DNA of 64,000 nt from Raillietiella orientalis (lineage: Eukaryota): assembly GCA_036172245.1 (NCBI GenBank), contig JAYWIR010000013.1, forward strand, positions 3,224,001 to 3,288,000. Reading direction: 5' to 3'. How positions within the stretch are numbered: the stretch's first letter is position 1; each line of letters opens with the position of its first letter. Positions 1-61,989 of the stretch are shown here, piece after piece. Below the pieces are notes generated by a model. The model saw nothing but the letters and a program-made list of their open reading frames with translations. It did not search any database and was not told where the DNA came from. A program made the translations under genes and the position numbers.

Positions 1-2107
1 CGAAGAAGTCTCCGACCGCCTTCGCCGGGGTGGACATAGGTAACAGGAGCAGAAGGTCGTCGGCATAGGCTGCTACGGCGGGCGTGCCGGGACACGAGCT
101 AGGCAAGGAGGCCAAAGTCACCCTGTAGGCTCTCAGCACCAACTCAAAGTAGGTGCTGAAGAGCAGGGGACTCAGGCTATCTGCCTGCCTGATGTTTTGC
201 CGCACCGGCACGCCATGCACCTTCTGACTGCTGAAAGAGACGGAAATTATCGCATGGCGCCAGCAGGAGCGCAGGTAGTTGATCAAGGAGGGTGGGAAGC
301 CCATGCGACCTAGGAGCTCCAACAAAAGCCCCTGGTCAACACAGTCGAACGCCTTATGGAGATCGACTGCGAGCGCTAAGGCCCCCTTCCCCGCCCGGGA
401 GTCCATTCCCTGCCCTGCTGGCGGCCCCAAAGTGGGGTTGCCGATTTTTCCTTTCCCTTCCTTTTGACACCTCTGCGCGTGCATCCACGTGCTCGCGAAG
501 AAGAGGTTGGCATCCATACTTCGCCCGGGAACAGCATATGTCTGCTCCGGGCTAATAATGGATTCTGCCACCTGCCCCAGACGCGAAGCCCATAGCCCGG
601 CAACCAACTTGGCGTCCGTATTCACAATCGTGATCGGACGCCAGTTGTTCAAATTCCTAAGGTCTCCCCCTTTGGGAAGGAGCCTCACTCTGGCTGACCG
701 AAACGAGGCGGGAACATCGCCTTCGTCTCGGATCAGCCTTGTCAGCTGAAGCAGCAGGGGTGCCAGCTCTTCCGCGAAGCTCTGATAGAACTCCGCGGGC
801 AAGCCGTCTTCCCCCTGAGCTTTCCGCCTCTTGAGCCTTTTGATACCGGCGAGAATTTCGCCGGAGGTAAAAGGCTCATCGAGGCTTAACGACTCCTCCT
901 CCCCTCTTGCCGGGGCACCATCCGGAAGCAAGAGCCGAGAGGCATCTTGATCCGGGGGCGCCCTGGCGTAAAGGGAGGAATAATAACTCCGCACGAGATG
1001 CCGTACCGACGCCGGGGACGAACATTCCCGGCCCTGGTCGTCCAGCAAGCTGGCCGACCCGGATTGCCAGGCTGGGCGTTCGGCCCCGGCGCGGTACTCG
1101 GCCAGGCGACGGACATTAGGGGTTCGCTCGTACCTACGGGCCTGTAAATAGGCCCGATGGTTGCGAGGACCCTCGCCGAATCCGGAGGGCAGGCGGTCCA
1201 GGGGGACCTGCTCGCAGAATTCCCGGACCGATTCCTTAAAAAGGTCCCAGTCTTGGAGATTCCGGAGCGTGACGCCTCTCAGGTATTCGCGAAGGTGTTC
1301 CTTCGCACCTGAGAGTCGCGTCCAGTCCCCCGGCAGACGCCAGTCTCTGGATGGCGGTCCCTTGTCGCGAGGCCGCATCTCGAAAATTAACCGGGAATGG
1401 TCCGACAACGTTGACGCAACCCTCCCCCGTTTGCCGACCCGTGAACACAGGTCAGCGTCGAGGAAGACGTGGTCGATGCTGCGGACCATTCCCCTCTCAC
1501 CCGCGAACAAGTTGCGCGCACGCATGGCGGCGCACAACTCGTTCATCGCGTTCACCTGTGTTTCCGGCTCACCTGTTAGCAGGCGGAGATTGAAATCTCC
1601 CGCTATCAGGTGAGCCTTCCGCACGCTCGTGTTCGCCAGCCAGTCGCGCTTCAAGGATTCAAGCAGCCTGGTACGGTTGCTATATCCCTTTTGACCGGTT
1701 GGGGCGTACACATTCGTGACGATCAGATCGATCGAGTCCGACCAGCCGAGAGTCAGCTGACCGACCCGACCGTCGTCATCGAAGCGCACGCCCTTCACGG
1801 CAGCGTCGATGGCCGGTTTCACGAAGAACGCGACCCCGCAGGTGTTGCGGATGCCGCATTGCCAGTACAGCCGACCCCCCGCGATCGTCTCGATCTCCTG
1901 GACGTCTGCCGCGGTGATCACGTGGATCTCCTGCAACAGGGCCAGGTCGAACTCCCGCAGGGTGTCGGCTGTATCTCGCCTGTTACCGTCGTCGCGCAGC
2001 CCGTTGACATTCCAACAGGCCGCGCGAATCCGACGGCGACTGGCGAGCCCAGGTGTTACTCCGGGGAAGATGGCAGTGCGGCGTCCGCCACCTGCTGGGG
2101 CGGGACG
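1..2107 (-). CDS. ORF2 of copy A: APE endonuclease + reverse transcriptase (partial, open to the window edge)
   Basis: Manual translation: WNVNGL..LALLQEIH..TNVYAP..AGDFN..IDHVF..SDH (EN), then GEDG..EFY..NWRPITIVNTDAKL..DLHKAFD..IRQADSLSP..YADD (67-56). Same frame throughout; absent from the ORF track because it has no stop inside the window. Confidence 0.93.
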
Positions 2108-3806
2108 CTAGGTGGAGCAGGGGGGTCAGGTGCTGAAGGCACCTGGTCCCCCTCCTCCATCGGTGCCGGCGCGTCGGCCGGATCACCCGCAGGTGGAGTC
2201 GCGCCTACCTGTTCGCCCTCCTCCATGGGGGCGGGCTGTTCAGGGTCGGCGCCGGCAGGGGGGACTTCACCCCCCTGTTCACCCTCCTCCATGGGGGTGG
2301 CCGCATCGACGGCTTCCGAGCGTGGGAATTCCTCCTCCGAATTTCCCACGCTGGCGACGGCTTCCGTCTTCTCCTCCTCGCTGGTGGAGGGAGGCGCCTC
2401 CTGGGCTTCTGGGACTTGCGTCCCGACTTCCTGGGGGGTGCCTCCGAGGAGGAGGATGTGCTTCCGGCCCCCAGGTCTAACTCACCTGTGGGGGCCTTCC
2501 TCGCCGGAGCCGGCCTTCGCACGGCCTTGCGCGAGGGATTCTCACGCTCGGCCAGCGTGACCGCGAGCTCCTCCGCCGCCTGCGCGAACGCGGCGTCCGC
2601 GGTTTCGACCGCCGCTATGTCGCGCGGCTCACCCTCTGTGTAAACAGAGGGTTCGCCGTTACGAGCCTCGGGCGCAGCGGAAACGGCAAGGGAAGGATCG
2701 ACGCTCCGGGTGGCAATCTCGGGAACGACGATTCGTTCGAGTGCCACCGTGCACTCGCGCAGAGTTTTCGAGCGCGGACCGGGTTTTTTTGGCTGTCCGG
2801 CCGTCTTGCGCTCTTTGCTCTCCGCGGGTGGGAGTTTCCTTGGTTTTCTGGCCTCTACAAGCTGCCATCCCTCTTCGCCTTCCACCGTTTCAGAAGGTTT
2901 ATCCTCCGGCTTACGCGCCGGAGGTTGAGGTGTTGGCAGCTTGTGCTGGCCCTTTTCCACTTTAGGTCTAGAGACCTTTGAAGCGCGTTTCCCCTGCGCT
3001 TTTTTCGCGGCAGGGGGAACCGGGGTGGGACGTTTTGGGCACACGCGCCGAACGTGGCCCCTCTCCCCGCACAAATGGCATTGTATATTGGGACACCTTT
3101 TACGTAGGTGTCCCACGGTATCACAATGCCCGCAATACCGGGGCTTCCCTACATACCACAGGTCGACGTTTTCTTGCGCCACCTGTAGTTTGTGGGGAAG
3201 CCCACAATTCTCCCGTACGGTGACCCGCGCTGCAGCCTGCTCACCAAAAAGGCTATCGAAGCCGTCGAAAATGGAGGGTTTCGGCCACAGTGCGTGCACC
3301 TCACCGTACTTTCTCAATTCCTCACCAACCGCTGACCGCGTCATGCGGCTGGTGATGCCAGTCATGCGGACCACCACGGAGCGGTCCATGGATACTGGCA
3401 GGATCTTGCGGCCGTCTACGTTCAGCGGCGCATGGATTAGGCGGTGAGCCAAGGTGACATCTTTGCAGACCACCTCGACCCGCTGCCCGCCGCTGAGGAC
3501 GGAGAGGCCGTCCAGATCCTTCTCTGTAACATTCGCGTCCTTCAACGCTTTGCTGAAGGCGCGCGCTGTCCGGCCGTCGAACAAGTTGCCTACCTGGTAG
3601 ACAAGCGATGGCTTGTACCCGGAGGCCTTGTATGCTGCCATCTCCGCCATGGCTTCTGCGCTGGGCGCGGCCACCATGGCGCTCCATGTCCTCGGCGTGG
3701 CCGGGGATGATTCCGGGGCGGCTGCCCCTGCTCCAGTAGGCTGTGGGGGCGAACTAGCCTCCCCCACTCCCAGCTCCATCGCGGTGTCCTCTGGCGTCGT
3801 GGCCAT
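2056..3806 (-). pseudogene. ORF1 (gag-like nucleic-acid-binding protein) of copy A, one frameshift near 2395
   Basis: MATTPEDTAM start; RRM-like region; CGHCDTVGHLRKRC and CHLCGERGHVRRVC knuckles; acidic PMEE-repeat tail lies in a second frame (2056-2349). Confidence 0.88.
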
Positions 3807-3892
3807 TGGACACCGACGATGTACACAAAACACCACACAGAAGAAAAAGCGCTTTCCTACTACTCTTTGGGGAGTGAAGGAAAAACACGTCC

Positions 3893-5280
3893 TCCTACTG
3901 GCCGCGGAGGAAGCTGGCTGCAACGAGGCTGCCAGCTCCTCCGCGGCTCGCGCGAAGGCTGCGTCGTCGATGGTGGTGTCGATGACGGACGCCGCCGCCG
4001 GCTCGCTCCCCTCGCTGTTGACTGTTTCAACAGAGGGGAGGTCGTCGGTAGCAGCGAGTTCTTTCCGGCAGCGTTCGGCAACATCGAGAACGCGTTCGAC
4101 AACGACGCTGCACTCTTTTATTATCGCGCTACCCTGCTCTTTCTTCTTCTGTTGGTAGGCGATTTTCTTTTCCATCCTCCTCTCCTTCTTTGATTTTTTG
4201 GCCGTTGCCACTTGCCACCCAGTCTCCTGGGCGGCTCCCTCAACTTTTTCGGCGTGGGTCGCCGGGGTCTCGGGTGCGGCCTGGGTCTTGGGCGCGGGTG
4301 GCACAGCCTTCGCGGCAGCTTTCGCCGCCAGTCTTTTCTGCAGAAGCCGGGCGCGTTTTTTAAGGTTTCTCTTGGAAACCACCCGCACTGCTGCTTTTGG
4401 GCACACCTCTCTCGTGTGGCCCATTGTGCCGCATACTTGGCACTGCACATTGGGACACCTCTTTTTGAGGTGGCCCGACGTATTGCAGAAGCCACAGTAT
4501 TTCGGCTCGAAAGAGGTCGACGGTTTCGCCTTCGACCACCAGTTTGTGGGGAAGAGTGCAGCCCTCCCGAACGGTCACGCGCGCAGCAGTGAGGCCGTGT
4601 TGCAGCCCCGTGTAGTCCTCGAAAGGACTAACTTTCGTCCACTGCGCGTGGACCGTTCCGAACTGTTCCAAAGCGGCGCGAACCTGTTCTTTGCGCATTC
4701 GCGCGGTCACGCCTAACAGGTGGACCACCATGCTGCGGTCCGCCGTAGTGGGGAGAAGCCTGCGCGTCCCCATCACAACGGGGGTTTTAAGCAGTCGTTG
4801 GGCCAGCTCTGCATGTTTGCAGATGACCTCAATGTACTGACCCCCGCTGCGGATGGTCATAGCGCTGAGCTCCTCCTCTTTCACATCGAGAGCGCGCATG
4901 CCCTTCGAGAAGGCGCGCGCGCTCTTTAAAGAATATAAATTGCCTACCTTGTAGAACAATGACTGGTTGTACCCCTCCTCTACATAGGCCGACAATTCCG
5001 CCGCGGCTGCAGGCGATGGCGCCGACACAACGGCGCTCCACTCCCGCGCTGCAGCGGGGACCGATTCTGTTGGGGCGGATGCCCCCACCTCCATCGCCTC
5101 TGGGGGCGACGTTGCCGCCGCCCCCTGGATCTCCATCGCCTCTGTGGGCGGCGTTGCCGCTGCCCACTGGCCATCCCTGGTGGTCGCGTCATACATCGCT
5201 GCCTGATCGACCACCGAACCACACGACGCTTGCACTGGGGGAGACTTCCTGGCACGAGGAGCACCGAGAAAACACGTCCA
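3893..5280 (-). mobile_element. Same family, piece C: 5' end and 5' two-thirds of ORF1, cut by copy A
   Basis: 5' motif at 5279-5269; ORF1 homology (YKVGNL..SGGQ..VHAQW..CGFCNTSGHLKKRC..CQVCGTMGHTREVC); frameshift near 4510. Confidence 0.9.
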
Positions 5281-5290
5281 CCCTGGAGCA

Positions 5291-7395
5291 CGCAAGGCGG
5301 TCGACTGTGTAGACCAGGAACTCTTCTTGGAGCTCCTGGTTCGCATGGGCTTCCCACCCTTCTTGATTTCCTACCTGCGCTCTTGCTGGTGGAACGCGAT
5401 AATTTCGATCCTTTTCAGCAGTCAAAAGGTGTATGGCGTGCCGGTTCGGCGGGGTATACGGCAGGAAGATAGTCTCAGTCCCCTGCTCTTTAGCACCTAC
5501 TTTGATTTGGTGCTGAGAGCGTACTGGGTGACTTTGGCCCCTTTGCTAAGCTCGTGCCCCAGCACGCCCGCCGTAAGTGTTTATGCAGACGATCTTCTGC
5601 TTCTGTTACCTGTGTCCACCCCGGCGAAGGCGATCGGAGATTTCTTCGACCTGCTCAGCCGCGGGACCGGACTGCAGGTGAACAGGACGAAGTCGTCGGT
5701 GGTGTCAGTTGGTGCGGCGTGGGCAGGGCAGCAGGACTGGGTTTGTTCGGGGATCCCCATGGCGAGGTGCATCAAGTACCTTGGTGTGCCGTTGGGGGAC
5801 TTCTCCCTTGCGGAAGCGTGGTCCAGCTGCCTCCAAAAAGTCGAGACGGCGATCGGCCCGTTCCTGGAAGGCAAGTTTCACTTGCCGGAACGGGCCGCGG
5901 TGTGGAACGCCTTTGCTGCCCCCATTTTCCGCTTCTTGCTTTTTGTTTGCCCCGCCCCAGGAGTTGTTAAAAGGAGGACGAAGGACCTCCTCCGCATCGC
6001 CCTTTGGGGCAAGGGGAGGCCCCTAGTCTCTTTGAAGGACTTTTGCGCTCCTCGTCGGGACGGCGGACTTAGTCTCCTGACGCTGGAGCGCGTGGAGAAA
6101 CAGCTGCGATGGCGTACCCTTGCCATCGCAGCGAAGATGTGGAGCACCCCGTGGTGCATTCCGGCTCGCCTTCTCGCCAGTCGTGTGTCCCGGTGCGAGG
6201 GACTTGCGTCTTTTCTTCTGTGCCCCGGCCGGAAGATCAGAAGATGAGGCCTACAGCTCGGGCGCATGGCATCGTTGGCCATGGACAACAGCTGGATGGT
6301 TTGCTGCCCCTCCAACTCCTCCGCCTGGCTGGAGGAGAACATCGGAAGGTGGGCTGTGGTGAACCAGATAAGCCACGTAACGTGGAATCGTCTCCGATGC
6401 GGCCCCTACGCCCGCTGCACTCTGAGGAATCTTCTGGAGAATCCAGCTAGAAGCACGTGGGCAGACACAACTTGCCTGGCTACGGCGCTGCCCTTCCTGA
6501 GGAGGGCGCTTGACTGCAGTCGGACGCCAAGGTGGCAAGTCTCCTGCTGCATCGAGGGACGGGAGAAGAGAATGAGCGGCTGGACCATGGGTCAACTGGT
6601 TGACGCCACGACCCCGAGCATCCAGCCGCGAGGACTAAGAAGATGGGGCGATCTGCTGGCCATCCTTATGGATGTGCTGAAGTGGCCCCCGCTTCTTCAG
6701 GAATCCAGGATCCTGCCCCTTAAGTGGAAAGAGTCGGCGTTGCTGTTGTTGCATTGGGGTTTACCCTGCAACGCACGCCGCTCCCACTGGACAAGAGGAG
6801 TTGTGGATCCTGCGTGTGTCAGGTGCGGAGAGCGGGAATCGCTCTCTCACCTTATTGTGGACTGTGCTGCCCTCCGTCCCCTTTTGGAACGGTTTGGGAC
6901 GACCCTCGGTCTCCCTACGGGCAGTTCCCCTAGAGACGTTTTTCGGCTTCTCTTCGCGCGGGACGCCCTGCAGCCAGCCGCAGTCCTTGCAGCCTTGTGC
7001 TGCATCCGAGGCATCGTGGCGGCATGGAGCGACACCAACAAGGGAGGAGTGGGTCAGCACGCGAGGGATGTCATCCCATATGCCCACCGCTTCTTGCGGA
7101 GAGCTGCTGGATGGCCCCAACTGGGGAACATACGGATGGACCTCGAGGGCTTCCTTCAACGGATGGGCCCTCCTCTCAGCGAACAGTGATCCCTTCCCTG
7201 CCCTCCAACCTCTTTTGTTTGTTTGCGTTTTTATTTTTACTTTTGTTTTTTCCCCATCCCTTTTCGCTGCTGGGGAGTGCCACGCCGGGCTGCGTCCCGG
7301 CGTCCCGGTAGGTCCCGTGCATAAGGCCGTGAGCGGGGCCTGGTACCGCAATTGTAGAGTTTTTTATTAATAAACGCCCCGGGCGAACCCGGGTG
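5291..7395 (+). mobile_element. Same family, piece E: 3' half (RT from KAxDCVD, zinc finger, 3' UTR)
   Basis: GIRQEDSLSP, YADD, GLQVNRTKS, KYLGVP, DGGL, CVRCGERESLSHLIVDC; frameshift near 6245; stop 7189; AATAAA 7369-7374. Confidence 0.93.
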
Positions 7396-10085
7396 GCAAC
7401 TCCAAATCCCCGGGGCAGGCGGTGCAAAGGGAAATCCTCGCAGAACTCGCGGACCGAGACCTTCATGCGGTTTCATTCTTCGAGGTTGCGGAGGATGACG
7501 CCTCTCAGGAACTGACGGAGATGTTCCGCCGCACCGGAGATGCGCGTCCAGTCCCCTGGCATACGCCACGCCCTGGATGGTGGTCCTTTGTCGCGTGGCA
7601 TAATTTCGATTATCTACCGGAAGTGGTCCGATAGCGTCGACGGAGGTTTCCCTCGTCTGCCGACCCGTGGGCACAGGTCGGCGTCAAGGAAGACGTGGTC
7701 TACACTTTGGGCCATTTCCGGTAGGTCCCCCAGCAAGTTGCGCGTACGCATAGCGGCACACAACTCGTTGGTTGCGTCTTTTTGCCTGCAAGGCACACCT
7801 GAGAGCAGGCGGATGTTGAAATCCCCTCCGATCAGCTGTGCCTTGCGTACGTTTGTATCCGCCAGCCAGTCGCGCTTCAGGGTTTCGAGGAACCGGGAAC
7901 GTTCCCCGTATCCGCGTCCTCCGCTCGGAGCGTACACATTAGTCACGACAAGGTCGATCGAGTCGGACCACCTAAGGATAAGCTGGCCAACCCGACTGTC
8001 CTTGTCGAATCGTACGTCCTTTACGAAGGAAGCGACTGTTGGCTTCATAAAAAACGCGACGCCACAGGTGTTGCGAGCGCCGCATTGCCAAAATAGACGA
8101 CCCCCTGCGATCCTTTCGATCTCCTGGGCGTTCTCCGCGGTGATCACGTGGATCTCCTGCAGGAGTGCCAGGTCGAAGTCACGCAGGGTGTCGGCCGTGT
8201 CCCGCCTGTTGCCGTCATCGCGCAGCCCGTTGACGTTCCAGCAGGCCACGCGTAATCGACGGCGACAGGCGAGCCCAGGTGTTACTCCTGGGAAAGTGGC
8301 AATGGGGCTCCCGCCACCTTGTCGGGCGGGACGCTAGGAGGAGGGGGTGCGTCGCGCACCGCTTCTCCCTCCTCCATGGAGGACGATTCGTCGTCGGGGC
8401 CTTGCAGAGGAAGTAGGGGTTCACCCACCTGCACATCCTCCTCCATGGGGGTCGCTAGCTGCACGGTGTCGGGGAATGAGATATTCCCACCCTCGCCTCC
8501 CACGCTGCCGGCTTCCCCCTCGGGGGCCGATTCATCCGCCTCCTTATTGATCCGGATGCGCCTCCTGGGGTTCTGAGACTTCCGTCCCGTCTTCTTTGGT
8601 GGCGCCTCCGCTGAAGAGGACGCACTTTCGACGTCCGGATCGGCCTCACCTGCCTCCGGAGCCTTCCTCGCGGCCGGCCTTCGCAAGGCTTTTCGCGAGT
8701 TCTTTTCACGGCCTTGCAGTTCAGCCGTGAGTTCTTCCACCGCCTGCTGGAAGGCGGCCTCCTCGATCGCGTCGAGCGTGGCGCGCGGTTCCCCTTCTGT
8801 TTCGCCAGAGGGTTCACCATCGACCGTCGCGGCTTCGGCGGACGCGAGGGGGGGGATTGCTCCCCCGGTGGCGGCATCGGGTGCCTCCACACGTTCTAAT
8901 TTTACCGAACACGCGCGGAGCTTTTCGCGGCACGGTTTTTCGCGCTGCGTTTTTGTTTTCACCGCGTTTCGTTCGGGACTCCCGGGTTTTCTTCGTGGCT
9001 GTACCGTCTGCCAGCCTTCGCCGTCACCAGCGTCGTCGGGAGTGTTCTCAACCGACGTTTGCTGTGAGGGCTTAGGGACTGGCATCTGGCTTTTTACAGC
9101 CTGTTTCAGGTTATTCACACCTCTCCCGCCCGTTTCCCCTTTGCCTTTTTTGCAGCGGATGGGGGCGGGATTTCTCTTCTTGGGCACACCTTACGGATGT
9201 GGCCCTTATTTCCACATAAGTGGCATTGGATGTTAGGGCACCGCTTTTTTAGATGCCCTGTAGCATCGCAATGGCCACAATACTTGGGCTTTCCCACGTA
9301 CCAAAAATCGACTTTTTCTTCGCCGATATTCAGTTTGTGGGGAAGCCCACCATTCTCTGGTAGGGTGACGCGGGCTGCGGCCATCCCACTGAATAGCCTT
9401 CCGTACGTTCGGAAGACATTGGGTTTGGCCCAATACGCGTGCACACTACTATGCTTCGACAACTCCTCATGGACGCTGGTTTTGTCCATTCGGAGTGATA
9501 CGCCCGTGAGGTGGACCACGACGGAGCGATCCTCCGTCACAGGGAAGATCCTGCGGCCGTCCACCGTAATAGAGGTGTTCAGCAGTCGCTGCGCCAGACT
9601 TGCCTCTTTGCATGTCAGCTCAACTCGCTGGCCCCCACTAAGGACGGATAGGCCTAAAAGGTCTTCCTCCCTCACGTTCAACCTTTGCAGCTCCATTTCG
9701 AAGGAGCGTGCAATTTTTTCATCAAACACACTGCCTACCTTATAGATCAGAGACGGCTTGTAGCCGCTGTCCTTGTAGGCAGTCTGCTCCGCTACTGCAT
9801 CCGGGGATGGTGCAGCAACGACGTCACTCCAACTCCTCGCCAATGGCAAAGAGGGTCGCGAAGGGGTGGTTGCCCCCGATTCCGATGGGACAAGTGCCCC
9901 GGATTCCGTGGGGGCGGATGCCCCCACTTTCATTGGTGGAGGAGAGCATGTCGCTTCTCCTCCTACAACTTCCATCGCAGTGTCCTCAGGCATTTCTGCC
10001 ATGGGACACCGGTACTCCCACACACCAGGCAACCAACGAAAAGCTTCCCACTAACCAATCCGTGGAGCGATGCCAAACCACGTCC
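7396..10085 (-). mobile_element. Same family, piece B: 5' end, ORF1 (10002-8282, frameshift ~9180), endonuclease and start of linker
   Basis: 5' motif GGACGTGGTTT at 10085-10075; ORFs 9115-10032, 8282-9187 and 7614-8249 match copy A ORF1 and EN. Confidence 0.93.
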
Positions 10086-10094
10086 GCTCCCTAG

Positions 10095-10700
10095 AACGAC
10101 ACGGGGAAGTGTGAATCCTAGCTGTGCCAGGTGTGGGGAGCAGGAAACCCTCCCGCACCTTTTAGTTGACTGTGTTGCCTTCCGGACCCTATGGGAACGG
10201 TTCGGTCCCACCTTAGGGATCCTGGAAGGTAGCCCTCCCAGAGACTTTTTTTGGTTCCTCTTTGTACAAAACACCCTGCAGCCAGCCGCGGTCCTAGCAG
10301 CTCTCTGCTGCGTACGCGGCATTATGGCAGCTTGGAGTGGATCCGACCAAGCAGAAGATGTTAACGGAAGGGATGCCATGGAGTATGCAGCTCGTTTTCA
10401 GCGAATAGCATCCCGATGGCCCACCTGGAAAATCTGTACCAGGACCTCGTCGGCATCCTGCAAAGGATGGATGCTCCACGCAACGGACAGTGATCCCCTC
10501 CCGGTCCTCCAGATGACAAGTGTTTTCCTGTTTCTTTATTTTTTATTTTTGTTTTTTCCCCAACCCCATCCGTTTACGTGGAGTGTCAAGTCGGTCTGCG
10601 CACCGATCACCCGACAGTTCTACAGAACTATTGGCCGCAGCGGGGCCTTGTACCGCAAATTCTGTAAGTTTTTGAATAAACGCCACGGCTTGACCGGGTG
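10095..10700 (+). mobile_element. Same family, piece F: zinc-finger region and 3' UTR
   Basis: CARCGEQETLPHLLVDC; 3' UTR alignable to E; AATAAA 10675-10680. Confidence 0.9.
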
Positions 10701-10704
10701 AAAA

Positions 10705-12168
10705 CGTCGAACCGTACGCTATGTACCGTATGCATGATGGCCGGCTGTATCAGGAAGGCCGTCTCTTTCGCTTTACGGGCGCCGCACTGCCAATGCAGCA
10801 TTCCGCCCGCGATCCGTTCGATGTCGGCGGCATCCTCGTACGCGATCACGTGGATCTCTTGAAGGAGCGCCAAGTCAAAGTTTCGTAGGGCGTCGGCTTT
10901 GTCGCGTCTTTTCCCGACGTCGCGCAGGCCTTTTACGTTCCAAACGGCCACGTGCATGCTACGGGAGGACGCGACTCCACGTGTTACTGCTGGGATTCTG
11001 GCAGTGCAGTCCCCTTCTGGCTTGCAGAGGGCGCTTTCTCTTTGGGAAAAGGCATTTCTCAGACTTCCGAGGCACTCTCTATGCCTTCCTCACCTTGAGG
11101 CGGGAAGGACGTGATTGCCTCCTCGAAGGAGTCCCGTGAGCCTTCCTCCATCTTCTCTGGGTCAGAACCAGTGTCGTTCTACCTTTGCAGGGATACTTCC
11201 CTGTGGACGGCTTCGGCATGGCGCGCAAACGTGTAGCGTGGTCCCTCTACGGGAGGCGCCGGTTCCGCGTTCGCCTCTACCACGGAGATCGTGCAGAGCG
11301 ATTCTTTTGCGGTGGGTGCGCGTATAGCGTCCTGAGCTGCTCTCGCGGCCGCACGCGTCATGACGCTGGGGCGCTTTCCAGAGGTTGGCGAAAGATTTAC
11401 AGGCCTGCCGCTGGGTACTGCTGGTGAGGTCAACAACCTTGACGACCTGCATGCTGTAAGTCCCGTCTACGTGCACTCGGTCGCGGGTGGTGCGACCTTG
11501 TCGTTCTCCGTAGGAGGTGGGACGGTGCGCTGAGGCCGCAGCTTCCACGTTTTTTATTTTCTCGAGTCGTGGAAGGACTTCGCGAGCAATCTGCGGTTTC
11601 TTCTTCTTTCTTTTTTCAACCTTTCGTTTTTTTCGATTGGTGAACTGCACTCAGCCTGCTTCCTCTTTTCCCTCTTCGGCTTCTGCATGGCTGCTCGCCG
11701 CAGGTGCAGGTGTAATGGATGCCGTTGGCTGTGGGTCACCTTCCGGAATCGCCTTAGATGCGGAATTGGCTGAGAGAGCTCGATTGTTCTTATTTTTTTA
11801 TTCCTTCTATTTTAAATTATTTTTTTCCAAGGGTGCTTCCCCTTGTATCAGACGTTGACAAGTTTCCTGCCGACGTCAAATCTGTGGGGTAACGGACGGT
11901 AGTGGCCGCAAGCAGACCAAGTTCTTAAACGACAGGTGGCATGTCGATGTCACAGGGCGGTTCCCATATTTTCTAGAGACAGAAGTTAGCTTCTTCGCGG
12001 TCTGATCAGTGGCCACTGTGAGGCTACTGATCAGATCTATTGGTCCCTGGTATGCAGGGATGACGTAGAGCTTCGCCCACAGTGCGTGCACCGTCGCGAA
12101 CTACTCCAATTTCCGGTGGACAGTCTCCTTGGTCGTCCTTAACGTGATGCACGATCAGGAAGCGGTCG
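10705..12168 (-). mobile_element. Same family, piece D: decayed 5'-truncated ORF1 plus N-terminal endonuclease
   Basis: VHALWAK near 12090; MHVAVWNVKGL..LALLQEIH..VRFD (10957-10705). Confidence 0.82.
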
Positions 12169-12740
12169 TGATTGACGTCGTTACGAACGTCTTTGCGCCG
12201 AGCGGCTCCCACCTGCATAGGGAACAAAATGACTTTTCGACTCCCTGTAGCGCAGATGGCTGGCGGTTGCAGGCGTGTGCAAAGTCCACCTGATTGCAGG
12301 CGACGGCAACATGCGTCTGCTTTCTGGTGGGAACATCGCCGAACTCCACCACGTCAACGAGCTGTGCGCGTCCGTGCGCACGCGCAACTTCTTTGACGGC
12401 GACCGAGGAGTGGAAAACAGCATCGACCACGTCTTATTCGACGAGCACCTGCGCGCGCGGGTGGGTCGCCGGGCTAGGATGCCGTCTTAGCTGTCGGACC
12501 ACCTCCGAATTAGGTTCGAAATGCTGGCACGCCAGAAAGGCCGCGAAAGCCAGAAAGGTCCTCCGCTTGGCGTATACCGAGAGAATGAATGCGTTTCCCC
12601 GAAGCTGTGGAGCACCTCCGTTGCTTCCTGCGAGGAGCAGCAGTGCAGAGACTCGAGGATTGGGACTCTCTGAGGCGCTAGGTCCGAGAGTTCTGCGAAG
12701 GATTCCCGATGGGCTGCTTTACCACATGTTTGGGCGTTGC
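12168..12740 (+). mobile_element. Same family, piece G: C-terminal endonuclease and start of linker
   Basis: IDVVTNVFAPSG, HLIAGDGN, NELCASVRTRN, IDHVLFD, SDH, VREFCE. Confidence 0.85.
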
Positions 12741-14030
12741 CATGCTGTTACGCCGGGGCGTTTATTTAAAACTGTTCTATACGGTTGTAGTACAAGACCC
12801 CACTGATGCCAACACATCATGGAACCTTCCGGGTCGCCGGTACGCAGACCGACTCGATTCTCCTCGGCAGCAGGGTAAGGGGGAAAAAAAGAAAAAGAAA
12901 AGAAAAATCAAGAAAAGAAACACTTTGGAGGGCTGGGAAGGGATCACTGTTTGCTGGGTGGAAACTTCATCCTTTGTCGAGGTCCATTCGTATGCTTCCC
13001 AAATGAGGCCATCTGGTCTCAATTCGCAGGAAGCGAGCTGCAAGTTCAATGGCGTCCCTTTCGTTGTTTCCTCCGTTGACGTTACTCCGTGCTCTCACAA
13101 TACCTCGGACAAAGCAAAGTGTTTCCTGGGCTGCCACTGAGCGTCCTACGCGAAGACGAGCCGAAAAACATCCCGGAGTCCAGTGTTGCGGTGCGCGTTG
13201 CGTGGAAGACCCCAGTGCAACAGCAGAAGCACCGTTTTCTGCCACTTTAGGGGGAGGATCTTCGATCCATTCAATACTGGGGGCCACTTCAGGTCATCCG
13301 TTGGAATGCCGAGCAGCTTGTCGCATCTCAGTAATCCACGCGGAAGGACGCTCGGGATCGTGGCGTCCGCATGCTGTCCCATGGTTCAGTTGCTTAAATT
13401 CTTCTCCCTACTTGCGATACGGTAGGAGACTTGCACCTCGGCGTCCAGCTGCTGTGAAGCGCCCTTCTAAAATAGGGCATCGCCGTAGCTAGGGGGGTCT
13501 TCTCTGCCCACGTCCTCCTGGCAGACACTGCAGTATGTTCCGCAGTGAGCAGCGGGCGTAGTTGGAGAAACGCAGGTAGTTCCAGCTGTCACTTACAGAT
13601 CGATTCAGCATCGTCCACGTGCCAATTATTTCCTCTAGTCATGCGCTTGAGTTGGCGGGGCTACAGGTCATCAAGCCCTTGACCAGTGTGGCCATGTGTC
13701 CAAAGATAAGGCTGCATCTGCTCATCTTCCGGTAGGGGCACAAAAGATGAGATGCCAGCGCTTCCGTCGAGGATATACGGCGGTTGAGGCGGAATGGAAC
13801 TCACCAAGGGGTGCCCCTATACTTCGCTGCGATGTCCATGGTACGCCATCGCAGCTGAATCTCCATCCGCTCCGGTGTCAGGAGGCCGAGACCGCCGTCC
13901 TAACGCGGAGCACCCAAGTCCTTTGAAGGCACCCGGGGCTTCTTGTTGCCCCACAGGGAGATACGTAGGGGATCCTTTGTCCTTTTCTTCAATTGAGGGG
14001 GTACGGAGCAAACAGCTGCTGGAGCATGAT
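12741..14030 (-). mobile_element. Same family, piece H: 5'-truncated 3' fragment inserted antisense into G/I
   Basis: Reverse complement aligns to E ~5930-7395 (KWPP..KILPLKW..LLHWGLP; 3' UTR; TTTATT at 12761-12766). Confidence 0.87.
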
Positions 14031-14049
14031 TAAAACCTCCCTTCGAGAC

Positions 14050-15960
14050 CGGTTAAGGCTAGGGTGTTTGGAACGAGTATACTTGAAAGCTCGTCGCTAC
14101 ACCCAAACACCAGACATCCGCCGACTGGCAGAGTACTAAGCCAGGGCCGTACGGTAAACCTGGCAATCCGTGTCAGCCAGCCTCCTAAACGGTGATGACC
14201 AGGAGCACTCGAACGGCAAGAAGGCAGCCTGAGTCCCTTGCTCTTCAGCACCTAGTTTGAGCTGGTGCTGAGGGCTCACAGGGATACTCTAGCTTGCCTG
14301 CAGCGCAATTGTCCCGGTACGCCTGCGGTGGCAGCGTATACGGACGATTTTCTGCTGCTGCTCCATATGTACACCCCGGCGTCGGCACTCGAAAATTTCT
14401 TCGAGCTGTTGGACCGCGATACAGGACTAGAGGTGAACAGTGTGTAGTCGTCCGTGGTAGCAGTCGATTCGGTGTGGGCAGGACAGCCGGACTGGATCCT
14501 CCTGGAGATCCTCATGGTTCTGTACTTTAAGTACCTTGATGTACCATTGGAGGAGTATTCTTCGCCGGAGACGTGATGGTCCAGATACCTCCAGAACAAG
14601 CAGAGTTGGAATCTTTTCGTTCCGGAATGGCAAGTTTCTGTCGCCGGAACGGGCCGGGGTGTGGAACGCGTTTGTGGCCGTTCTCTTCCTCCCTCTGCTT
14701 TTGGTTTGCTCACCACCAAGTAGCACGAAGGACCTCCTGAGGAATAACCTCTGGGGCAAAGGAAAGCCTGAGTCTGCCTGAAGAACTTGTGCTCTCTGCG
14801 TCGCGACGGAGGTCTCGACCTTCTCACGTTAGGGCGCTTATAGCGGCAGCTCCAGTGGGAGATGCTTGCCCTAGCGGCAAAGCTTTGGAGCACAAACTGG
14901 TGCAAGAGCGCACTTTACCTGGACAAGCGAGCCATCGGCCACTCGGGACTATGTTCGTTCCAGACGCCGCGGCGCAGACGAAACGTGTCCAACTGTGGAC
15001 TAAAGCTCCAGAGGCTGGCCAATCTGACCAGAAACGACAGCTGGATCTTCTGCCGGCCCGCCGACGGTGGTACCTGGATGCAGAAAACCGTTTGCACATG
15101 GGCCATAAACAATAAAGCGAGCAAGAAGTTGAGGCAGTGGCCACTACTTCTTGCTCTACAACAACTGATGGCTTCAGGATATCACTGCGCGGCCCACCAC
15201 CACGTGTGCGTGGTCGCAAAGAGCATTCCTAGCCGCGTCAAAGTTCTTCCTCAGGTAGCACTTGGGCAGTAAATAGACAGCCAAATAGGAGGTCAGTTGC
15301 GAAACAGGTCTTTGCACGAAGGAATTAAATGGTTGGATTACGGACCAGCTCAAGGACGGTGCGACCCTACGGACTAAAAGGACTATTGCGCTAGGATGAG
15401 CTACTGGGAATCAACAGGAGGACTTCGAGTGGTCTCCAGCGCTAAAGAGCAATCCGGTCCTCCCTTGAAGTGGCAGAATTCGGCACTTCTGTTGTTGCAC
15501 AGGAGTATCCCGTGCAACGCCCACCGGCCTCTCTAGACCTGGGGACTGTGGATCCCAATCATCCTACCGCACCCGCTTGTAGACTGTGTTGCCTTCCGGT
15601 TCATGTGATTGCGTTTCGCAACGGCCCTTGGGGCATCAAAGGACAATCCTAGAGACCTGTTCTAACGCCTCTTCGTGCGCGATGCCCTTTCGTCTGCCGC
15701 ATCCCTAGCAGTTCATTGCTGCTGCCTTTTCGAGACTGTAGCGTCCTTATCCTACGCGAGAGGAATACGGCGCGAGAGGGACACTATCTACCTCGCTCTG
15801 TGCTCCATGAAGACGGCAGCTGGATGGTCCCGGCGGCAGGGATATACTCAGACGGAACTTACCGGCCTCCTGGGAAAAATGCAGAGGAGACCCTTCAGCA
15901 CCAGGTGATCCTTTTCCTCAGCCTCTCAACTATTGCATGTCGTTTGCACATTAACTATTC
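14050..15960 (+). mobile_element. Same family, piece I: continuation of G (linker, internal deletion near 14210, decayed RT and C-terminus)
   Basis: VYLKARRYTQTPDIRRLAEY matches copy A AYLQARRYERTPNVRRLAEY; RQEGSLSP, AYTDD; GTGATCC 3' UTR start at 15905. Confidence 0.85.
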
Positions 15961-16039
15961 ATTATTCTCTTCGATATACTGCTGAAGGACTCCAGGAAGT
16001 GGTTCACACTCCAGATGCTTTCATGCTGACTGCTTCCAC

Positions 16040-17150
16040 GTAGGAGTTACTCAACGCGAACATTGAGAAGCCAGACCTCGAAGGGTTCTTGGTGAGCGGA
16101 GGTGAAGTTGTTGACCTGATCCACAAAGTGACAGCCCTTGCTTAGCGACTGCTAAACACCCATGACCATCGATGGCAAGAGACTTTACCATGAAACGTTG
16201 GATCACTCAGTAGTGATTCACCTGAGAGGTTCACGGTTGCATTTGGACTCGCCTGAAGTCCTCCGTCAGCTCAAAGAATAGGAGGCGGTCCACGCTCACT
16301 GGACCAGGCCAAACTGGCTCTCCGGATATGAGGGATCGTTCATCGTCTGGGCTGCAGCGCGCTTGACCGACACGGAGGGAAGCAACTTTCCTGCCGTATG
16401 GAAAAATGGGGACTTTACGTCGATCTCTGCTTTCCCAGGAAACTAAAACTCCTCAACCAGTGCAATAAAACCGGGAACTTGAAGACGTGGTGTCCGGAAA
16501 TTAGGAGCCTTGACCGCGGACTGAAGAACCACATAAAGTTTGTGTTCCTAAAAAGACTCGTCGGCGACATTTCGCGCTCAAAGTACAAGAAAGGCATTGT
16601 GAGCAAAAGAACGGAAGGAAAGGGAGGAAGGAAGAATCTCCATCACAGACAAACCAGACTTCATCGGAAGAAACTTTTAAAAGAGGGGGAAAAAATGAGC
16701 GACGGAGAACAATGGCAAGTGTCAACACCAAAAAAGGAAGAGGAAAAACCTCCCGAAAACCAAAAAGGCGACGGCAAGGCGATAGCTAAGCAGCACCTCA
16801 AGGCGGCTCTTCAGCAGGTCAGAGCGATCGAGGGGACCATCAGAAAGGCAGCCGTGAAAAGCGCTGTCGACGAATCGATCGATAGCCACGAAGGTCTTTG
16901 CAGCGTTAGGGGCATTTTTTGGAGAAGGCGGTGGCACCAATCCCTTTGAAAATAAGGGCCTCGAGAAAGAAAAGGGCTGTATGGCGTTTCTGAAGGGTCA
17001 ACTGAACTCGAGCATGGCTATGTACTCCAACCTGAATAAGTTTAGCATCAGCGGAAGCAACGGGAACCTCCTCAAAAAGACCCGAGGCCCCGAGAAAGAA
17101 TGCTTTCCCCCAGGAAAATAAGGCATCAGCTCGGAAAAGCAGATGGGTTT
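16040..17150 (+). mobile_element. Same family, piece J: heavily decayed ORF1
   Basis: NIEKPDLEG..SGGEVVDL..RLLNT..IDGKRL, DHSVVIHL, VHAHW, AAARLT, eroded knuckle CNKTGNLKTWCP, GEQWQV. Confidence 0.72.
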
Positions 17151-34850: not shown

Positions 34851-36184
34851 GCGTCAGCTACAATGCACGATTCGATACGACCAAGATTGGCATGGAAAAG
34901 GCAGGTACATAGGAATGCTTGCTTCTTTCTTTCACTTTCTCCCAGAAGCTCCTTACACAGGAGAACAAGGACGCTTCCGGGTTCCGCTTCCATGCATCCT
35001 CGCTTCTGTCTTCCCACTTCACATCCAGCCTCCGAGCTGCCTGTCGAACGTGAGCGGAAAAGATATATGTGCATCCTATCCAGAGTCGGATTCCGCTCGG
35101 GCAGGAAGCAGAAATTCTCGGATAACTGGGATCACTTGTCGCTCACAACAGGAAGGCTCCCAAAAATTCAGCGAAGCTGACTTGAAACAGGATTCGAAAT
35201 CGAGATGGTCGCTAGAAGTTGTTGGTAGCGGTGTGCCAACGGCTGCGATCCAACTCGGGACGTCAGAGACCGGGTTGATGCATTCCCAATCCATGGATGC
35301 GAGCGCCAGGAAACCTGGAGGTTGCGCGACCCCAGAGGAACGGCATTGCTGCGCTCCCGACCACAGCTCGTTGCACAACCCCCCAAGCGACATAAGGCAG
35401 AAAGCAGCAACTCTTGGAAAGTTCACATTCAAATTTATTTGAGCAAAAAAGTCCAGGTTAGGCCTGAGCCTCAGGGCGGCACCCTGAATGCGGGATGCAC
35501 GGCCGGGATACGATCACCGCGATGCGGAGCCATCTTCGCAAGGTGGCAGACTGCGGGACGAAATCCGCTCTCTTTGCTTTCCTCGATCTTCCTTGCCACC
35601 TCTCCCTCAATGGCGTCGCTCCGGATGCAGCTCGTCGCAACGAGCGCGTGGCGACGGGTGGGTGTCTCGCGAGACCTCCGACGGAATGGACCTCGAAGGG
35701 CGCATTAGCGAAATTCGCCGGAGGCAAACCCACTGCAAGGGTGGTTCCAGCGCTGCAGGAGCATCCTCCGTTCCTACCGCATCTTTCCATCCTACAACCG
35801 CTCCACAGCAAGGCACGCCCCAACACCCCAAGCAGTTTACAGCCTGAGGGGAAAAACACACCGATTCTCTGGGGTGTTCGCAACCCACGGCCTCGAAAGC
35901 CGACCCCAGCCCCCCAACCCACGCGCACCACTCGCCTAACGTAGGAATCGCCGGACTCATCTCCACAACCTCAAGACAAATCCGCAGCTTCCACCAACAA
36001 GGTGACATTTTCGTGCTGTAGGTCCAACCATCTGTGAACGAAATGGGACGGTAAGAATGTACTCCGCAAAGATGGGGGAAAGAAGGAGGTTTGCCAAATA
36101 GGGGGAGAGGGGGAATGGGGAACAACCCAAAAATTGGCACTAAAAAGAAAGCATCGTGCAAATACAGAGCACAGTCGCCACCAT

Positions 36185-37565
36185 TTTTGCTTACTTTTTC
36201 TTTTTCGTTTTTTAGTTTCCTTTTCTGCATTTTCTTTGCCTCATTTTTTCCTTTCCTCTTCTTTATCGCTTTCCATTTTTTCCTCTTTTCTCAGCTTTTT
36301 TTTTGTTTGTTTCCTTTTTATCTCTCTCTTTCATTGTTTTGTTTTCCTTCTTTTTTTCCCCATTTTTATTTCCTCATTTCCTTGTTTTTCTCTTTTCCTT
36401 TTGTTTCTTTCCTCTTTTTCACTAATTTTACTTCTTTCCCTTTCTTTCTCATTTCTCCCTTTTTTCTTCTTCTTTTCTCTCCTTTTTGTTTTTTTTTCCT
36501 TTCCTTTCCTTTCTTTTTTTCTTCCTTTTAAGATTTTTTTCATATTCTTTTTCTTTCTTTATTTTCATCTTTTTAATCTCTTTTCTTTTCTATTCTTAAT
36601 TATTTCGATATGTTTTGTCCATTTCTATTCAATTCTTTCTCTCTTCTTTTTTTTTTTCTATCTTTTCACTGCCCAGTGTTCCCTTCTTCCCTTTTTTTTT
36701 CTACTGCTTTCTCCTCTTAGTGTTCTTCCTTTTGCTTTCTCCATTTTTCTGTCTCTTTTGGTTTTTTGTGTTCTCTATTCTGTTTTTTATGTTCTATTTT
36801 TTTTTATTTTTTTTTTCTCCTCACTACTTTTCCTTTTGTTTTTACTCCTTTCTCCTCTTAGTGTTCTCTTTGTTTTCTCCTTTTTTTTCCTCTTTTCTTT
36901 TTCTATTATTTCTCCTCTCTCTCCTAGTGTTCCCTATTTTTATAGTTTTCTTCTTTTTTTCCTCCACCTTTTCTTTTTTTTTTTTTTTACTGCTTTCTCT
37001 TCTTAGTGTTCTTCTTTTGGTTTTCACGTTTTGTTGGTCTCTTTTCTTTTTCTTCTCCTTTCTCCCCTAATGTTCCTCATTTTTGAGGCTCTCTTTTCAG
37101 TTTTCCTTCTTTTTTTCTTCCTTCCCTTGCTATTGTCCCTTTTTTTTGTGTCATCTCTTTTTGTATCTTTTCTTTATCTCCTTCCTCAATGTAGGGCTCT
37201 TCTTTTCTCCTCCATTTTGTGTTCCGTTTTGTTTTTTGTTTTCTCTCTCCTTTGTGCCTTGGTGCTGTTTTGTTTCTTCCTGTTTTTCTTCTTTTTCTTT
37301 CTTTTTGTTTTTCTCTGCTTTCTCCTCTTAGTGAATAGTTGGAGTTAGGGCGTTTCCCTTAGTGACCTTTTTTTCCTCTTCTTTTTCTCTCCTTTGTAAT
37401 CCGTTTCCACATCTCTGTTTTCTCTCCTTTGTTCTTTGGTTTTTATTTCTTTTTTTTCCCTCTATCCTTTCGCCTTCTTTTCCTTCCCTTCTTTCCTTTC
37501 CTCTGCACCCCTTCTTTGTTCTTCTTGGGAATGTTTTCTCTTTCCTTCTTTCTCTTTTCCTTCCC
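36185..37565. repeat. ~1.4-kb T/C-rich low-complexity tract with an embedded repeated ~25-bp motif
   Basis: Nearly pure pyrimidine on +; motif like TACTGCTTTCTCCTCTTAGTGTTCT near 36702, 36843, 36911, 36988, 37053 and 37314. Confidence 0.92.
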
Positions 37566-43975: not shown

Positions 43976-44899
43976 AACTCAGAAGGGGCGCTGCAGCTTC
44001 CCGCAGGAAATCGCTCTCGCTTCCTTGTGCACTCTGTGAAGAGGCGACGACTCGGAGGGTCCCCCGGTGAGGAGGGGGGGGTTTGCTCTCCGTTGCACGA
44101 CAGAAGGGGGAACTCTCCACTCCTTGATTCCTGGGAGGACCCGAAGGTCGACTCCCATTGTTCCGGCCTTCATCGGGGGCCTCCGGTTTTATTCACCGAC
44201 GGTGCCACGCCCGAATGTCTCGGCCAACCAGCGCCATTGCAGGAGAAACTCGGAACCCGACGACGCAGTGGCGTCACAGTTTCATGCCGAAGTATTCGAA
44301 CCCGCGACGCCCGGGGCCACGCGCGGAAGCCTTAACCACACAGCCTCCGACGCGGGCTGGCCGAGCGGCAATCATCCAGAACTTCGCCGCAAGGACGAGT
44401 TTTCTGGATTGTGCTGATGCTCCTTTCGCTCCAGCGTACGCAGGCCAACACCATCCATCCCGGAGTGAAGCTCGCCTGTGTTTGGAGCGGACTCTAGACC
44501 CCAGCGTGCCCCACGGGACTTATCGTAGGAGGTGCTCTGTCCGCTCTTCGATTTCAAACGGATCGATGCAAACGGAAGGTACAAGGGAAGGACTACGAGT
44601 TCTTAGGTGGACAAAGAACTCAACAGTTGGCTCCAAAGAAACAGTCTCCCAGCCCGATGACACGGATTGGCAGTATCCATCAGCTCACTGTCCTTGCAAA
44701 TTCCTTAGAGTTGAGAAAGTTTCTTAGAGAACAAATTCCAGTGGAACTCAGAACTTTCTCCTCTGAGGAGAAAGCTCTTCTGTCCTGATTGGTAATGTGG
44801 AAGCCCACGTTTCCTGCCCAGCAGGAATTATAATTGATTGGACTAAAAAGACCCAAGGGTGATCTTGCAAGAATGCGGCAAGCTGCCTCAGCAGGAATA

Positions 44900-46149: not shown

Positions 46150-47336
46150 TTTGGCTGCCTTCACCCGCCCCAAGGTATGAACATGCGGTTTCTTCATCGG
46201 TCGCGTGGTAACCCTGGCGAAGGAAAACCGCAGTTGCATGGTTTGCTACTCCGCTCACGCCAGTGCCTAGCTAGAGAAAACAGCTGGCACGTCCGAGCCG
46301 ACATCCGAGAATTGGAACTGATACCGCGACTCTGCAACCGCGCCAGCTGCTCGCTGAGGAAGTCCCTGAAGTGTCTCAGCAGCAGCACATGGGCGGATAC
46401 GACCCCTTTCCTCTTCCGCCACAGTGATGCCCTTCTTGAGGAGAGCACTTGTCAGTAGCCAAGCGCCGAAATGGCAAGTCTCCTGAGAGATCTCAGGCAG
46501 ACGGAAGTGGATGAGGGTATGGACCATTCGGCAGCTCACGGATGCTGCGATCCCAAGTGCCCTTCCATGAGGATTACAGCGCTGGGGCGAGCTGCTCGGT
46601 ATACCATTCAAAGATCTGGAGTGGTCTCAAGTGCTCAACAATACCAACACCCTCCCGGAAGTGGTAGGAGACGTCACTTCTGCTACAGCACTAGGATCCC
46701 CCCTGCAGCGCAAGCCGAAGCCACTGGACTATGGAGAGGGTGAGAACGGACACTGTTGCCGGTGAGAGAAACTGGAACCCCCCCCTCACATTCCAGTGGA
46801 TTGTGTTACCCTCCGGTCCCTATGGAAACGTTCCGAAACGACCCTCCGGATACCAATTGGCCTCCCCAGTAACGTTTTACGGTTCTCCTTCGTGCGTGAT
46901 ACCTTTCAGCTAGCCGCAGCCCTAGCAGCACTTAGCTGCATCCGCGGAAATGTGGAGGCGTGGAGCGAAGCCAATGGAGGAGGAAACGTGGAAGAGACCG
47001 TCCGATTCGCGATTCGCCTTCTGTAGATAGCGCCCAGATGGCTCCCACTGAGCAGTATACGAACGGATCTTCCCGGCATCCTGCCAAAGGATGCAGACTC
47101 CCTCCAGGGGCAGGCATTTCCGCCCGGTCCTCCAGATTGTTTCTTTTTATTTTTGTTTCTTTTTTTGTTTTATTTTTGTTTTTGGTTTTTTTCATCACTC
47201 TCCGTTGCCTAGGGGAGTCCAGCCGGTCTGCGCACCAGTGACCCGGCGGGTTCATTGTAAAATCGGGAGGCCGCATGCTCTGCCACGATAGTTGCAGGTT
47301 TCTTGGTTTCAAGAAACACCAGGGTGTGACCACGTG
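46150..47336 (+). mobile_element. Isolated 3' fragment (piece K) of the Tx1-like family from 1-17 kb
   Basis: Aligns to E 6220-7395: STWADT, WQVS, QLAAALAALSCIRGNVEAWSE, T-rich 3' UTR, terminal CACC..CGTG. Confidence 0.85.
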
Positions 47337-47715
47337 GCAATTCCAGGCACCACTTGCCCGTTGGCTGGGTTCCTCCTCCACGATATTGCCCCTGACGATG
47401 AATGGCTATTGAGCGAGGGTGAGAGATGCACAGGGACGAAAGGGGAAAGCGAGGGTCCGGCATGGGGTCCGAGCGGGGCGATGGATAGGAGAGCAGGATC
47501 CCGCCGGTGGTCGTAAGAAGCGGAAGCAGAGAAAGGCGACAAGCATTATCGTAGCAACGGAGCATTGTTTTCCAGGATTGTCTCCCTTCGTCTCTCTCGT
47601 TCCTACTTGGGCGTCCCTCTTTACCTTGCGGAAAGAAGGAGAAGGACCAGAAGAAGAAGCAACCGAGATCGTTTTGGAGCATGGAACCCCAGTGATGGTG
47701 TCGTCTTCCTGGATA

Positions 47716-61200: not shown

Positions 61201-61989
61201 CCCGAGGTCGCTTCTGGATCTGCTCTCGTCCTTCCCTTCTCAGAGGGCGAAGGAAAAGGGGACAAGGAAACCCGATACTCTTGAAAGGTAGCCTGGATGA
61301 AATTTGCATGCGATGATCCGAGCTGCCGATAAAGCAGCGACGACATGGACACCCCCCTTCCCCCCCCCTCCGACGCTCCTTATTATCTTCCCTTCCAGTA
61401 GCATTAGCCCGCGGCAACACAGTTGTAACTGATCAAAGGGTTGGGGTCCTTCGAGGGTCCTTATCTCGGTCCGAGAGCTGCGCAGCAGGCCCCCTGCCTC
61501 TGGGCGAGATGGTCGGCTCATCGACCACGAGCCTTTTTGTTCTCCAGGAGCCTATGAGGAAGCGAGGTGGGGGGGCGCCGCTGAACCTCTCCCAGTGCTG
61601 CTGCCACCTCCCGCCATCCACGAGGTTCACCTTAAGCTTCCCGTATCCTCCCTCCTTGAGACGCCGTCGCGCAACAGCGAAGCGGGCCGGAGGGCGGTTC
61701 TACGGCAGCGGAGCGCACCAGCTGGGGGAAATGGCGGAATCTCCGCAGACGAGGAGGAACGCACATGCTGCGGAACGGACGGCGGTGGGCGTCACGGAGA
61801 TCTCCCCCCCCCCCCCCCCTCTTTCACCGGCGGATTGCGCCCGCTTGCTCAGCTTCCCGGCCGTGACGCGGGGCGCCCGCCGTGCTGGAGAGAACCTCAT
61901 GGCTGTTTCCATCCCGAGGAGCGAGCTCCCTCGGGCGTGAATCGTGGCACGGATACCTCTCTTCAAGACGCGCGCGCGCCTACTTTCTT

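Follow-up and report, generated by a model that had tools for sequence, protein, structure and literature searches.

The window, by which we mean the whole stretch of 64,000 nucleotides analyzed here, comprises positions 3,224,001-3,288,000 of contig C13 in the 210-Mb assembly of Raillietiella orientalis, and its bases 1-16,000 are occupied by a nest of mutually related LINE copies. Full-length members of this family are approximately 5.65 kb long and possess two open reading frames, the second of which (ORF2) encodes an APE endonuclease (EN) and a reverse transcriptase (RT; Pfam Exo_endo_phos and RVT_1) and has a C-terminal CCHC motif of the form C-x2-C-x8-H-x4-C, as read in P0018. Matches of ORF1 to zf-CCHC are weak (E 0.0002-0.0005, at or just under the Pfam cut-off). 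The lineages of the family are mostly 60-85% identical to each other, and the closest relatives beyond it are approximately 26-41% identical, save for two fragments at 68-70%; family sequence is also present in one DNA sequencing run, in short contigs. The best PDB matches of the endonuclease are to L1 EN, copies with the 5′ truncation that is a feature of the L1 group are present, and at least four stop-free ORF2 frames of 1,215-1,221 residues were found among 40 sampled 8-kb loci. Judged from its sequences, the family would belong to the L1-group, APE-type non-LTR retrotransposons, and may be called Tx1-like in a sense that refers to target preference and not to RT phylogeny. In two copies (L224 and L226), the endonuclease is lost through in-frame deletions and long fused frames result; these copies are possible non-autonomous forms.

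Copy A (1-3892, minus strand), a representative of the alpha lineage, is intact through its 5′ UTR, ORF1 and the EN-linker-RT portion of ORF2, and carries an empty GFG target near 1165-1174. It lies off-site, in the sense orientation, within ORF1 of copy A′, and its own 3′ end and the continuation of its host are located to the left of the window. Copy A′ (theta lineage; 3893-5289, minus strand) is represented by its 5′ part, the 5′ end of which abuts its host, copy E, at the KAFD codons of the RT, a type of junction that recurs in locus L231. Copy E (alpha; 5290-7399, plus strand), comprising the C-terminal half of the RT, the CCHC region and the 3′ UTR, closes with a conserved 3′ terminus (7369-7399) that consists of AATAAA, a G+C hairpin and a fixed end without poly(A), and is antisense within copy B. 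Copy B (eta; 7400-10109, minus strand) retains the 5′ end, ORF1, EN and the linker up to the GFG codons and is 94.6% identical to the eta copy L229; it is itself antisense, at HWTRG codons, in the 3′ part of copy C (beta; 10100-10704, plus strand), with the 5′ target copy at 10100-10109. The 3′ end of C in turn lies antisense, at 10705, on the EN RFD codons of copy D (10705-12150, minus strand), a decayed N-terminal part of EN with an ORF1 remnant. Both of these site types, that of B on HWTRG and that of C on RFD, recur elsewhere in the genome. Copy G (plus strand) is divided into a left part (12176-12736), in which decayed EN and linker extend to the GFG-homologous codons, and a right part (14051-15720), which resumes at the GFG codons and, following a deletion of approximately 810 bp after 14211, continues from the RT onward. 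Between them is copy H (12737-14050, minus strand), an old, 5′-truncated copy antisense in G that forms a lineage of its own, the nearest other copy being 80% identical.

Read from these junctions, the window would record a chain of insertions in which A entered A′, A′ entered E, E entered B, B entered C and C entered D, together with the insertion of H into G. A twin-priming 5′ inversion, in which A′ and E, and likewise B and C, would each be one element, was rejected, as each of these head-to-head junctions bears target copies specific to a lineage and brings two distinct lineages together. Movement of E, B and C as a single unit was also rejected, given that the C parts are 87-88% alike and the E and B parts 96-98%. 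The head-to-head junction between D and G (12150-12180) fits none of the known sites and is probably a deletion. A further copy, of delta type (L236; G000:C13:3,218,255), occupies the GDFN site of A′ and has in turn been interrupted close to KAFD.

Decayed family-related fragments, ORF1-like or from the C-terminal region of ORF2, are located at 16047-16950, 44375-44556 and 46167-47245. No Rfam or tRNA match was found in the window, and a reading of the target as an RNA gene was rejected. A 251-residue open frame at 51070-51822 (minus strand) shows a weak match to MFS_1 and is probably a host transporter exon, and no longer homologue was found among the longer proteins searched. A tandem repeat region at 36184-37333 is strongly T-rich and skewed, and the stretches at 47700-49100 and 61300-64000 are G+C-rich (up to 69%) with overlapping open frames, those scanned giving no Pfam match. 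A TTAGG array, which we take to be the arthropod-type telomere repeat, marks the end of contig C13, but because it lies approximately 1.2 Mb from the window, a subtelomeric position for the nest was rejected.

Antisense insertions at the GFG codons of the EN-RT linker

The initial annotation, made from the window alone, had proposed that two copies are inserted antisense at the same position of the linker between EN and RT, and the junctions bear this out. In reference coordinates, for which copy A (1-3900) was joined to copy E (offset 3545), the E-B and H-G junctions both fall at position 2727. Copy E, on the plus strand, ends with AATAAA at 7369-7374, the hairpin, and GGCAA at 7399, and host B begins on the minus strand at 7400 with the antisense of GGA TTT GGA G, its target occupying 7400-7409. 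Copy H, on the minus strand, ends with GGCAA at 12737, where host G, on the plus strand, stops at TGT TTG GGC G (12727-12736). The residues VA that had been assigned to the hosts (up to 7396 and 12740) are in fact read from the end of the insert itself, in reverse complement, so the boundaries shift by about 5 nt. That H is an insertion, with its host resuming near 14051, was correctly recognized: G continues there on GFG-homologous codons and then with the next linker residues, an arrangement that a 10-bp target duplication would produce, the two copies of which (the second at 14051-14060) match at 6 of 10 bases. Copy E does extend farther 5′ than H, by about 650 bp, but its left edge is the insertion junction with A′ at KAFD and not a 5′ truncation. 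The far half of B was found neither in the window nor in the adjoining 22 kb on the left, where it had been predicted to resume, and E-B is a one-sided junction.

Across the genome, NCCRAANCC comes directly after 91 of the 173 exact alpha-type ends, the enrichment of 3′ junctions at the linker GFG codons that a targeted insertion predicts. Among the 30 loci nearest to the E end (the window included), 21 are at the linker site, 6 join a duplicated target to the 5′ end of another copy, and 3 are elsewhere. The full 10-mer target occurs once per 5.65-kb element, in the antisense orientation at GFG, among approximately 400 CNCC sites. Forty GFG junctions, each having 400 nt or more on either side, were compared and resolve into 11 host classes, 51-82% alike, and 8 insert classes, in 15 insert-host combinations (12 at looser thresholds). 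In 78 of the 780 junction pairs, the inserts are at least 93% alike and the hosts at most 75% alike, and the insert and host trees of the 40 junctions are discordant. The pairwise identities in the window (69.5% for E and H, 62.8% for B and G), which had been put forward as a test, are indecisive alone; the wider trees supply the discordance that was sought. Copy H has no relative above 80%, whereas relatives of E at 96% occur in other host classes.

Host sequence flanks eight full-length copies on both sides, resuming at 2718, and their 10-bp target duplication is exact in five and has one wobble mismatch in three. At the 5′ junctions of L036, L065 and L068, a single wobble base distinguishes the 5′ copy of the duplication from its 3′ counterpart, a difference that could stem from gene conversion or from an upstream flank carried by the RNA. 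Tandem stacks joined by the same 10-mer account for 16 of 63 alpha ends. Of 19 tandem pairs, 17 could be scored, and in 16 of these the upstream copy of the duplication has closer relatives, a weak indication of which copy is reused, since the loci were picked by their upstream ends. One ancient junction spread by duplication, the outcome named at the outset as contrary to repeated insertion, is inadequate because full-length copies show these 10-bp duplications and tandem stacks. The site has been used repeatedly and independently, in one orientation and with a 10-bp duplication, and we regard site-specific repeated insertion at the GFG codons as real with high confidence. Intact, empty linkers are also present, and the 85 that were found give no estimate of occupancy.

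Some junctions of the set may be duplicates or flank swaps. At 11 junctions of the E-B type, the divergence of insert and host co-varies, and these may represent fewer events. The hosts on the two sides of L042, and likewise of L068, are from different lineages, which shows that flanks have been exchanged or misassembled. These same two loci are the only ones among 38 alpha GFG junctions in which the host is 99-100% identical to the young alpha inserter; the remaining alpha hosts are of the eta lineage (the type of B) or of classes 51-82% alike. The description of the target as the family's own linker therefore holds for the family and mostly not for the inserter's own lineage, the hosts being mainly siblings.

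Lineage-specific sites across ORF2

A total of 211 unique ends were collected, of which 209 have enough flank and 172 could be given a lineage by means of their upstream sequence only, with seeds taken from a tree. The lineages have sites of their own. Alpha ends lie antisense at GFG (reference 2727) in 38 of 63 cases, 16 of the others being in tandem and 9 elsewhere. Beta ends lie antisense at the EN RFD codons (2124) in 11 of 42, and several unmapped beta flanks resemble the RFD site in distant hosts. Gamma ends are antisense at the RT DAKL codons (3300) in 11 of 21, with 2 in tandem, and the gamma copy L224 has a 14-bp target-site duplication. Delta ends are in the sense orientation at the EN GDFN codons (2305) in 22 of 24; these junctions are mostly in A-type hosts and hence partly redundant, and they also occur in hosts 64-65% alike. 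The smaller groups comprise eta, at HWTRG (5053; 3 of 8, antisense for B in C), epsilon, at AGGRL (2034; 2 of 4), and the H type, at GFG (1 of 10, antisense for H in G) and mostly off-site. A further fixed site, that of theta at the RT KAFD codons (approximately 3550), is seen at window position 5290 and in L231:3790-5905, and no theta 3′ terminus was detected with the family end pattern.

None of the 172 assigned ends lies on another group's site; of the 37 ends left unassigned, 4 fall on a named site. The sequence-specific antisense target within ORF2 that was predicted from the window is supported for GFG, which is one of at least six lineage-specific sites, one of them sense-oriented. Flanks that are off-site keep a short motif of the lineage (C-N-C-C in 9 of 9 for alpha, mostly CTA for gamma and mostly CGTC for beta). 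Despite the abundance of CNCC sites, only 4 of 63 alpha ends lie elsewhere inside elements. Two secondary sites were also observed, one in the sense orientation at 3034 that is common to beta and gamma copies (L111 and L151), and an antisense one for epsilon in the 3′ UTR at 5573 (L193 and L198).

Target recognition and alternative explanations

A 3′ poly(A) tail is usual for L1 elements. Among 210 ends of the present family, none is followed by five or more A residues, and in 184 of the 185 ends that bear AATAAA, the end lies 24-25 nt past this signal; the 3′ hairpin has a predicted folding energy of -13.2 kcal/mol. The 3′ flanks match the host at wobble positions, even where the inserts are near-identical, which indicates that the flank is derived from the host and that the nick is precise to the base. 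The 10-mer has 14,950 matches in the genome, yet all 41 sampled ends on the full 10-mer belong either to a linker of the family or to a tandem junction, so the 10-mer alone does not suffice as a target. Most 5′ junctions have in common the C residues just outside the duplication, which points to an extended site, GGNTTYGGNG-NNGG (the 14-mer GGNTTYGGNGNNGG), of which we estimate several hundred occurrences genome-wide.

These features are probably best explained by target-primed insertion in which the element's ORF2 product recognizes a degenerate site of more than 10 bp. Each lineage would carry out target-primed reverse transcription at its own fixed nucleotide within a conserved coding motif of ORF2. 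The alpha group and the older H lineage would nick the host coding strand after GGN TTY GGN G, and because the nick would be on that strand, the insert would come to lie antisense and EN would be split from RT. Reverse transcription would begin at a fixed base just beyond the 3′ hairpin, which is proposed to position the template, and the 10-bp duplication left by the insertion is itself reused, giving rise to head-to-tail stacks. The site, a degenerate sequence of approximately 14-20 bp, would be read by the ORF2 protein, probably through surface loops of the endonuclease, and would persist across lineages since its codons are under protein constraint. Recognition by protein is favored because off-site flanks keep lineage motifs and 3′ flanks track the wobble bases of the host, and target choice in Tx1 elements is described as set mainly by the endonuclease in the available portions of two reports (PMC4494074, PMC1950540).

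The endonuclease itself is of an unusual form. The spacing between GDFN and IDH is 37 residues, compared with a median of 59 among relatives (63 of 74 scorable), and approximately 20 residues are missing at residues ~195-215 of P0001 and P0018, including the β-hairpin region that is present in most relatives. A structural model (pLDDT 85) has only a short, low-confidence loop and no β-hairpin at the DNA-binding edge, and matches human L1 EN (1vyb) with a Foldseek E value of 2e-15 and a TM score of 0.70. The fold and catalytic motifs are thus shared with the R1Bm and human L1 enzymes, whereas the family enzyme is shorter by those ~20 residues; in the parts of the two accounts available, the β-hairpin is called a common feature of LINE endonucleases (PMC1919474), and in human L1 EN the hairpin region shapes nicking and its deletion abolished activity (PMC1950540). 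The remnant of the hairpin region and two other EN windows vary most among lineages (residues 201-210, 181-190 and 141-150 in a comparison of five), a pattern that would support loop-based recognition.

The absence of the hairpin region keeps alive a reading, in our view unlikely, in which the target is remembered by RNA: the parent's downstream flank, carried on a read-through transcript, would pair with the nicked host strand, each lineage would pass on its site by way of its RNA, and the endonuclease would add only a weak preference of the C-N-C-C type. The fixed end without poly(A) and the insufficiency of the 10-mer by itself are consistent with this proposal, and annealing of read-through sequence raised R2Ol insertion from 12% to 96-98%, according to the portion of the report available (PMC6530143). 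However, the 3′ flanks contain no parent-derived bases and agree with the host from the second base onward, the same base is struck in hosts that share just 65-70% identity with the inserter, and the position of AATAAA 24-25 nt before the end suggests that the transcript is cleaved nearby.

It also appears improbable that a weak endonuclease motif, combined with chromatin tethering or local hopping within nests, would suffice, GFG then being the best-matching short motif in an element. The single occurrence of the full 10-mer per element, antisense at GFG, and the many copies found in nests and near contig ends would fit such a process, and clustering of the Zepp type offers a precedent in the sections of two reports available (PMC3446292, PMC8226300). 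Nevertheless, the approximately 400 CNCC sites per element are seldom used, and recognition of sequence would still be required, so that tethering modifies the preferred explanation more than it replaces it. The idea that a small number of ancient insertions, perhaps just one, later multiplied through segmental duplication and passenger transport, with gene conversion renewing the inserts, draws on the similar divergence of the E-H and B-G pairs, the co-variation at E-B-type junctions and the flank exchange in L042 and L068, but it is largely refuted and very improbable, as it demands conversion that stops exactly at the junction in 11 divergent host classes, conflicts with the empty sites in host classes, and leaves five further lineage sites, tandem stacks and motif-keeping off-site flanks unexplained.

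Relation to other target-specific LINEs

In the literature covered, target-specific LINEs are known to aim at RNA genes, microsatellites and unrelated transposons. Transposon-targeting members of the Tx1 group, as described in the part of the source available (PMC4494074), include Tx1L in Tx1D, Tx1-Mar in Mariner-N4_AMi, Tx1-9_AMi in Harbinger, and Tx1-8_Crp and Tx1-4_AMi in LTR elements. They resemble the R. orientalis family in being APE-type, in having a transposon as target with a fixed orientation per site, and in inserting in tandem. By the criterion applied in that work, in which more than 20% of flanks lie on one target (PMC4494074), alpha ends are target-specific (91/173, or 53%). In contrast to Tx1, the target in R. 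orientalis is coding sequence of the LINE family itself, with a base of its own for each lineage, and the preference is for a single nucleotide, whereas the Tx1 targets are described, in the same portion of the source, as regions "around" positions 240 and 830 (PMC4494074).

Zepp of Chlorella and Coccomyxa and ZeppL of Chlamydomonas are likewise L1-type elements that insert into existing copies and form G+C-rich nests (PMC3446292, PMC8226300). These are elements of green algae whose arrays consist mostly of 3′ ends, with one cluster per chromosome, and no fixed coding site is named in the available parts of those accounts (PMC3446292, PMC8226300). Set against these descriptions, the present family is mostly antisense and without poly(A), in a genome with a TTAGG telomere, and has several clusters per contig; it shares the nested insertion and not the single cluster per chromosome, alpha ends lying at separate places on contig C26 (0.03, 0.76, 0.87, 1.03, 1.43, 2.87 and 3.0 Mb). 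No report of LINE lineages that target fixed bases in each other's ORF2 was found in a literature search whose coverage lay mostly outside subscription journals and Repbase.

What sets this family apart from the elements in that literature is that its own enzyme gene serves as the target and that closely related lineages differ in the target they use. The lineages represent a natural series of endonucleases in which to follow how target specificity changes, and how it works without the usual hairpin. They also offer a mechanism for LINE nests and for the self-limitation of copy number, because every insertion splits or breaks an ORF2. More speculatively, and as a tentative possibility to which we give little weight, the lineages might constitute a guild in mutual conflict, in which a hairpin-less endonuclease, possibly assisted by an RNA-carried memory, cuts a motif that rivals cannot change, sparing host genes while destroying competitors. 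If true, APE retrotransposons would have a further, novel way of becoming sequence-specific.
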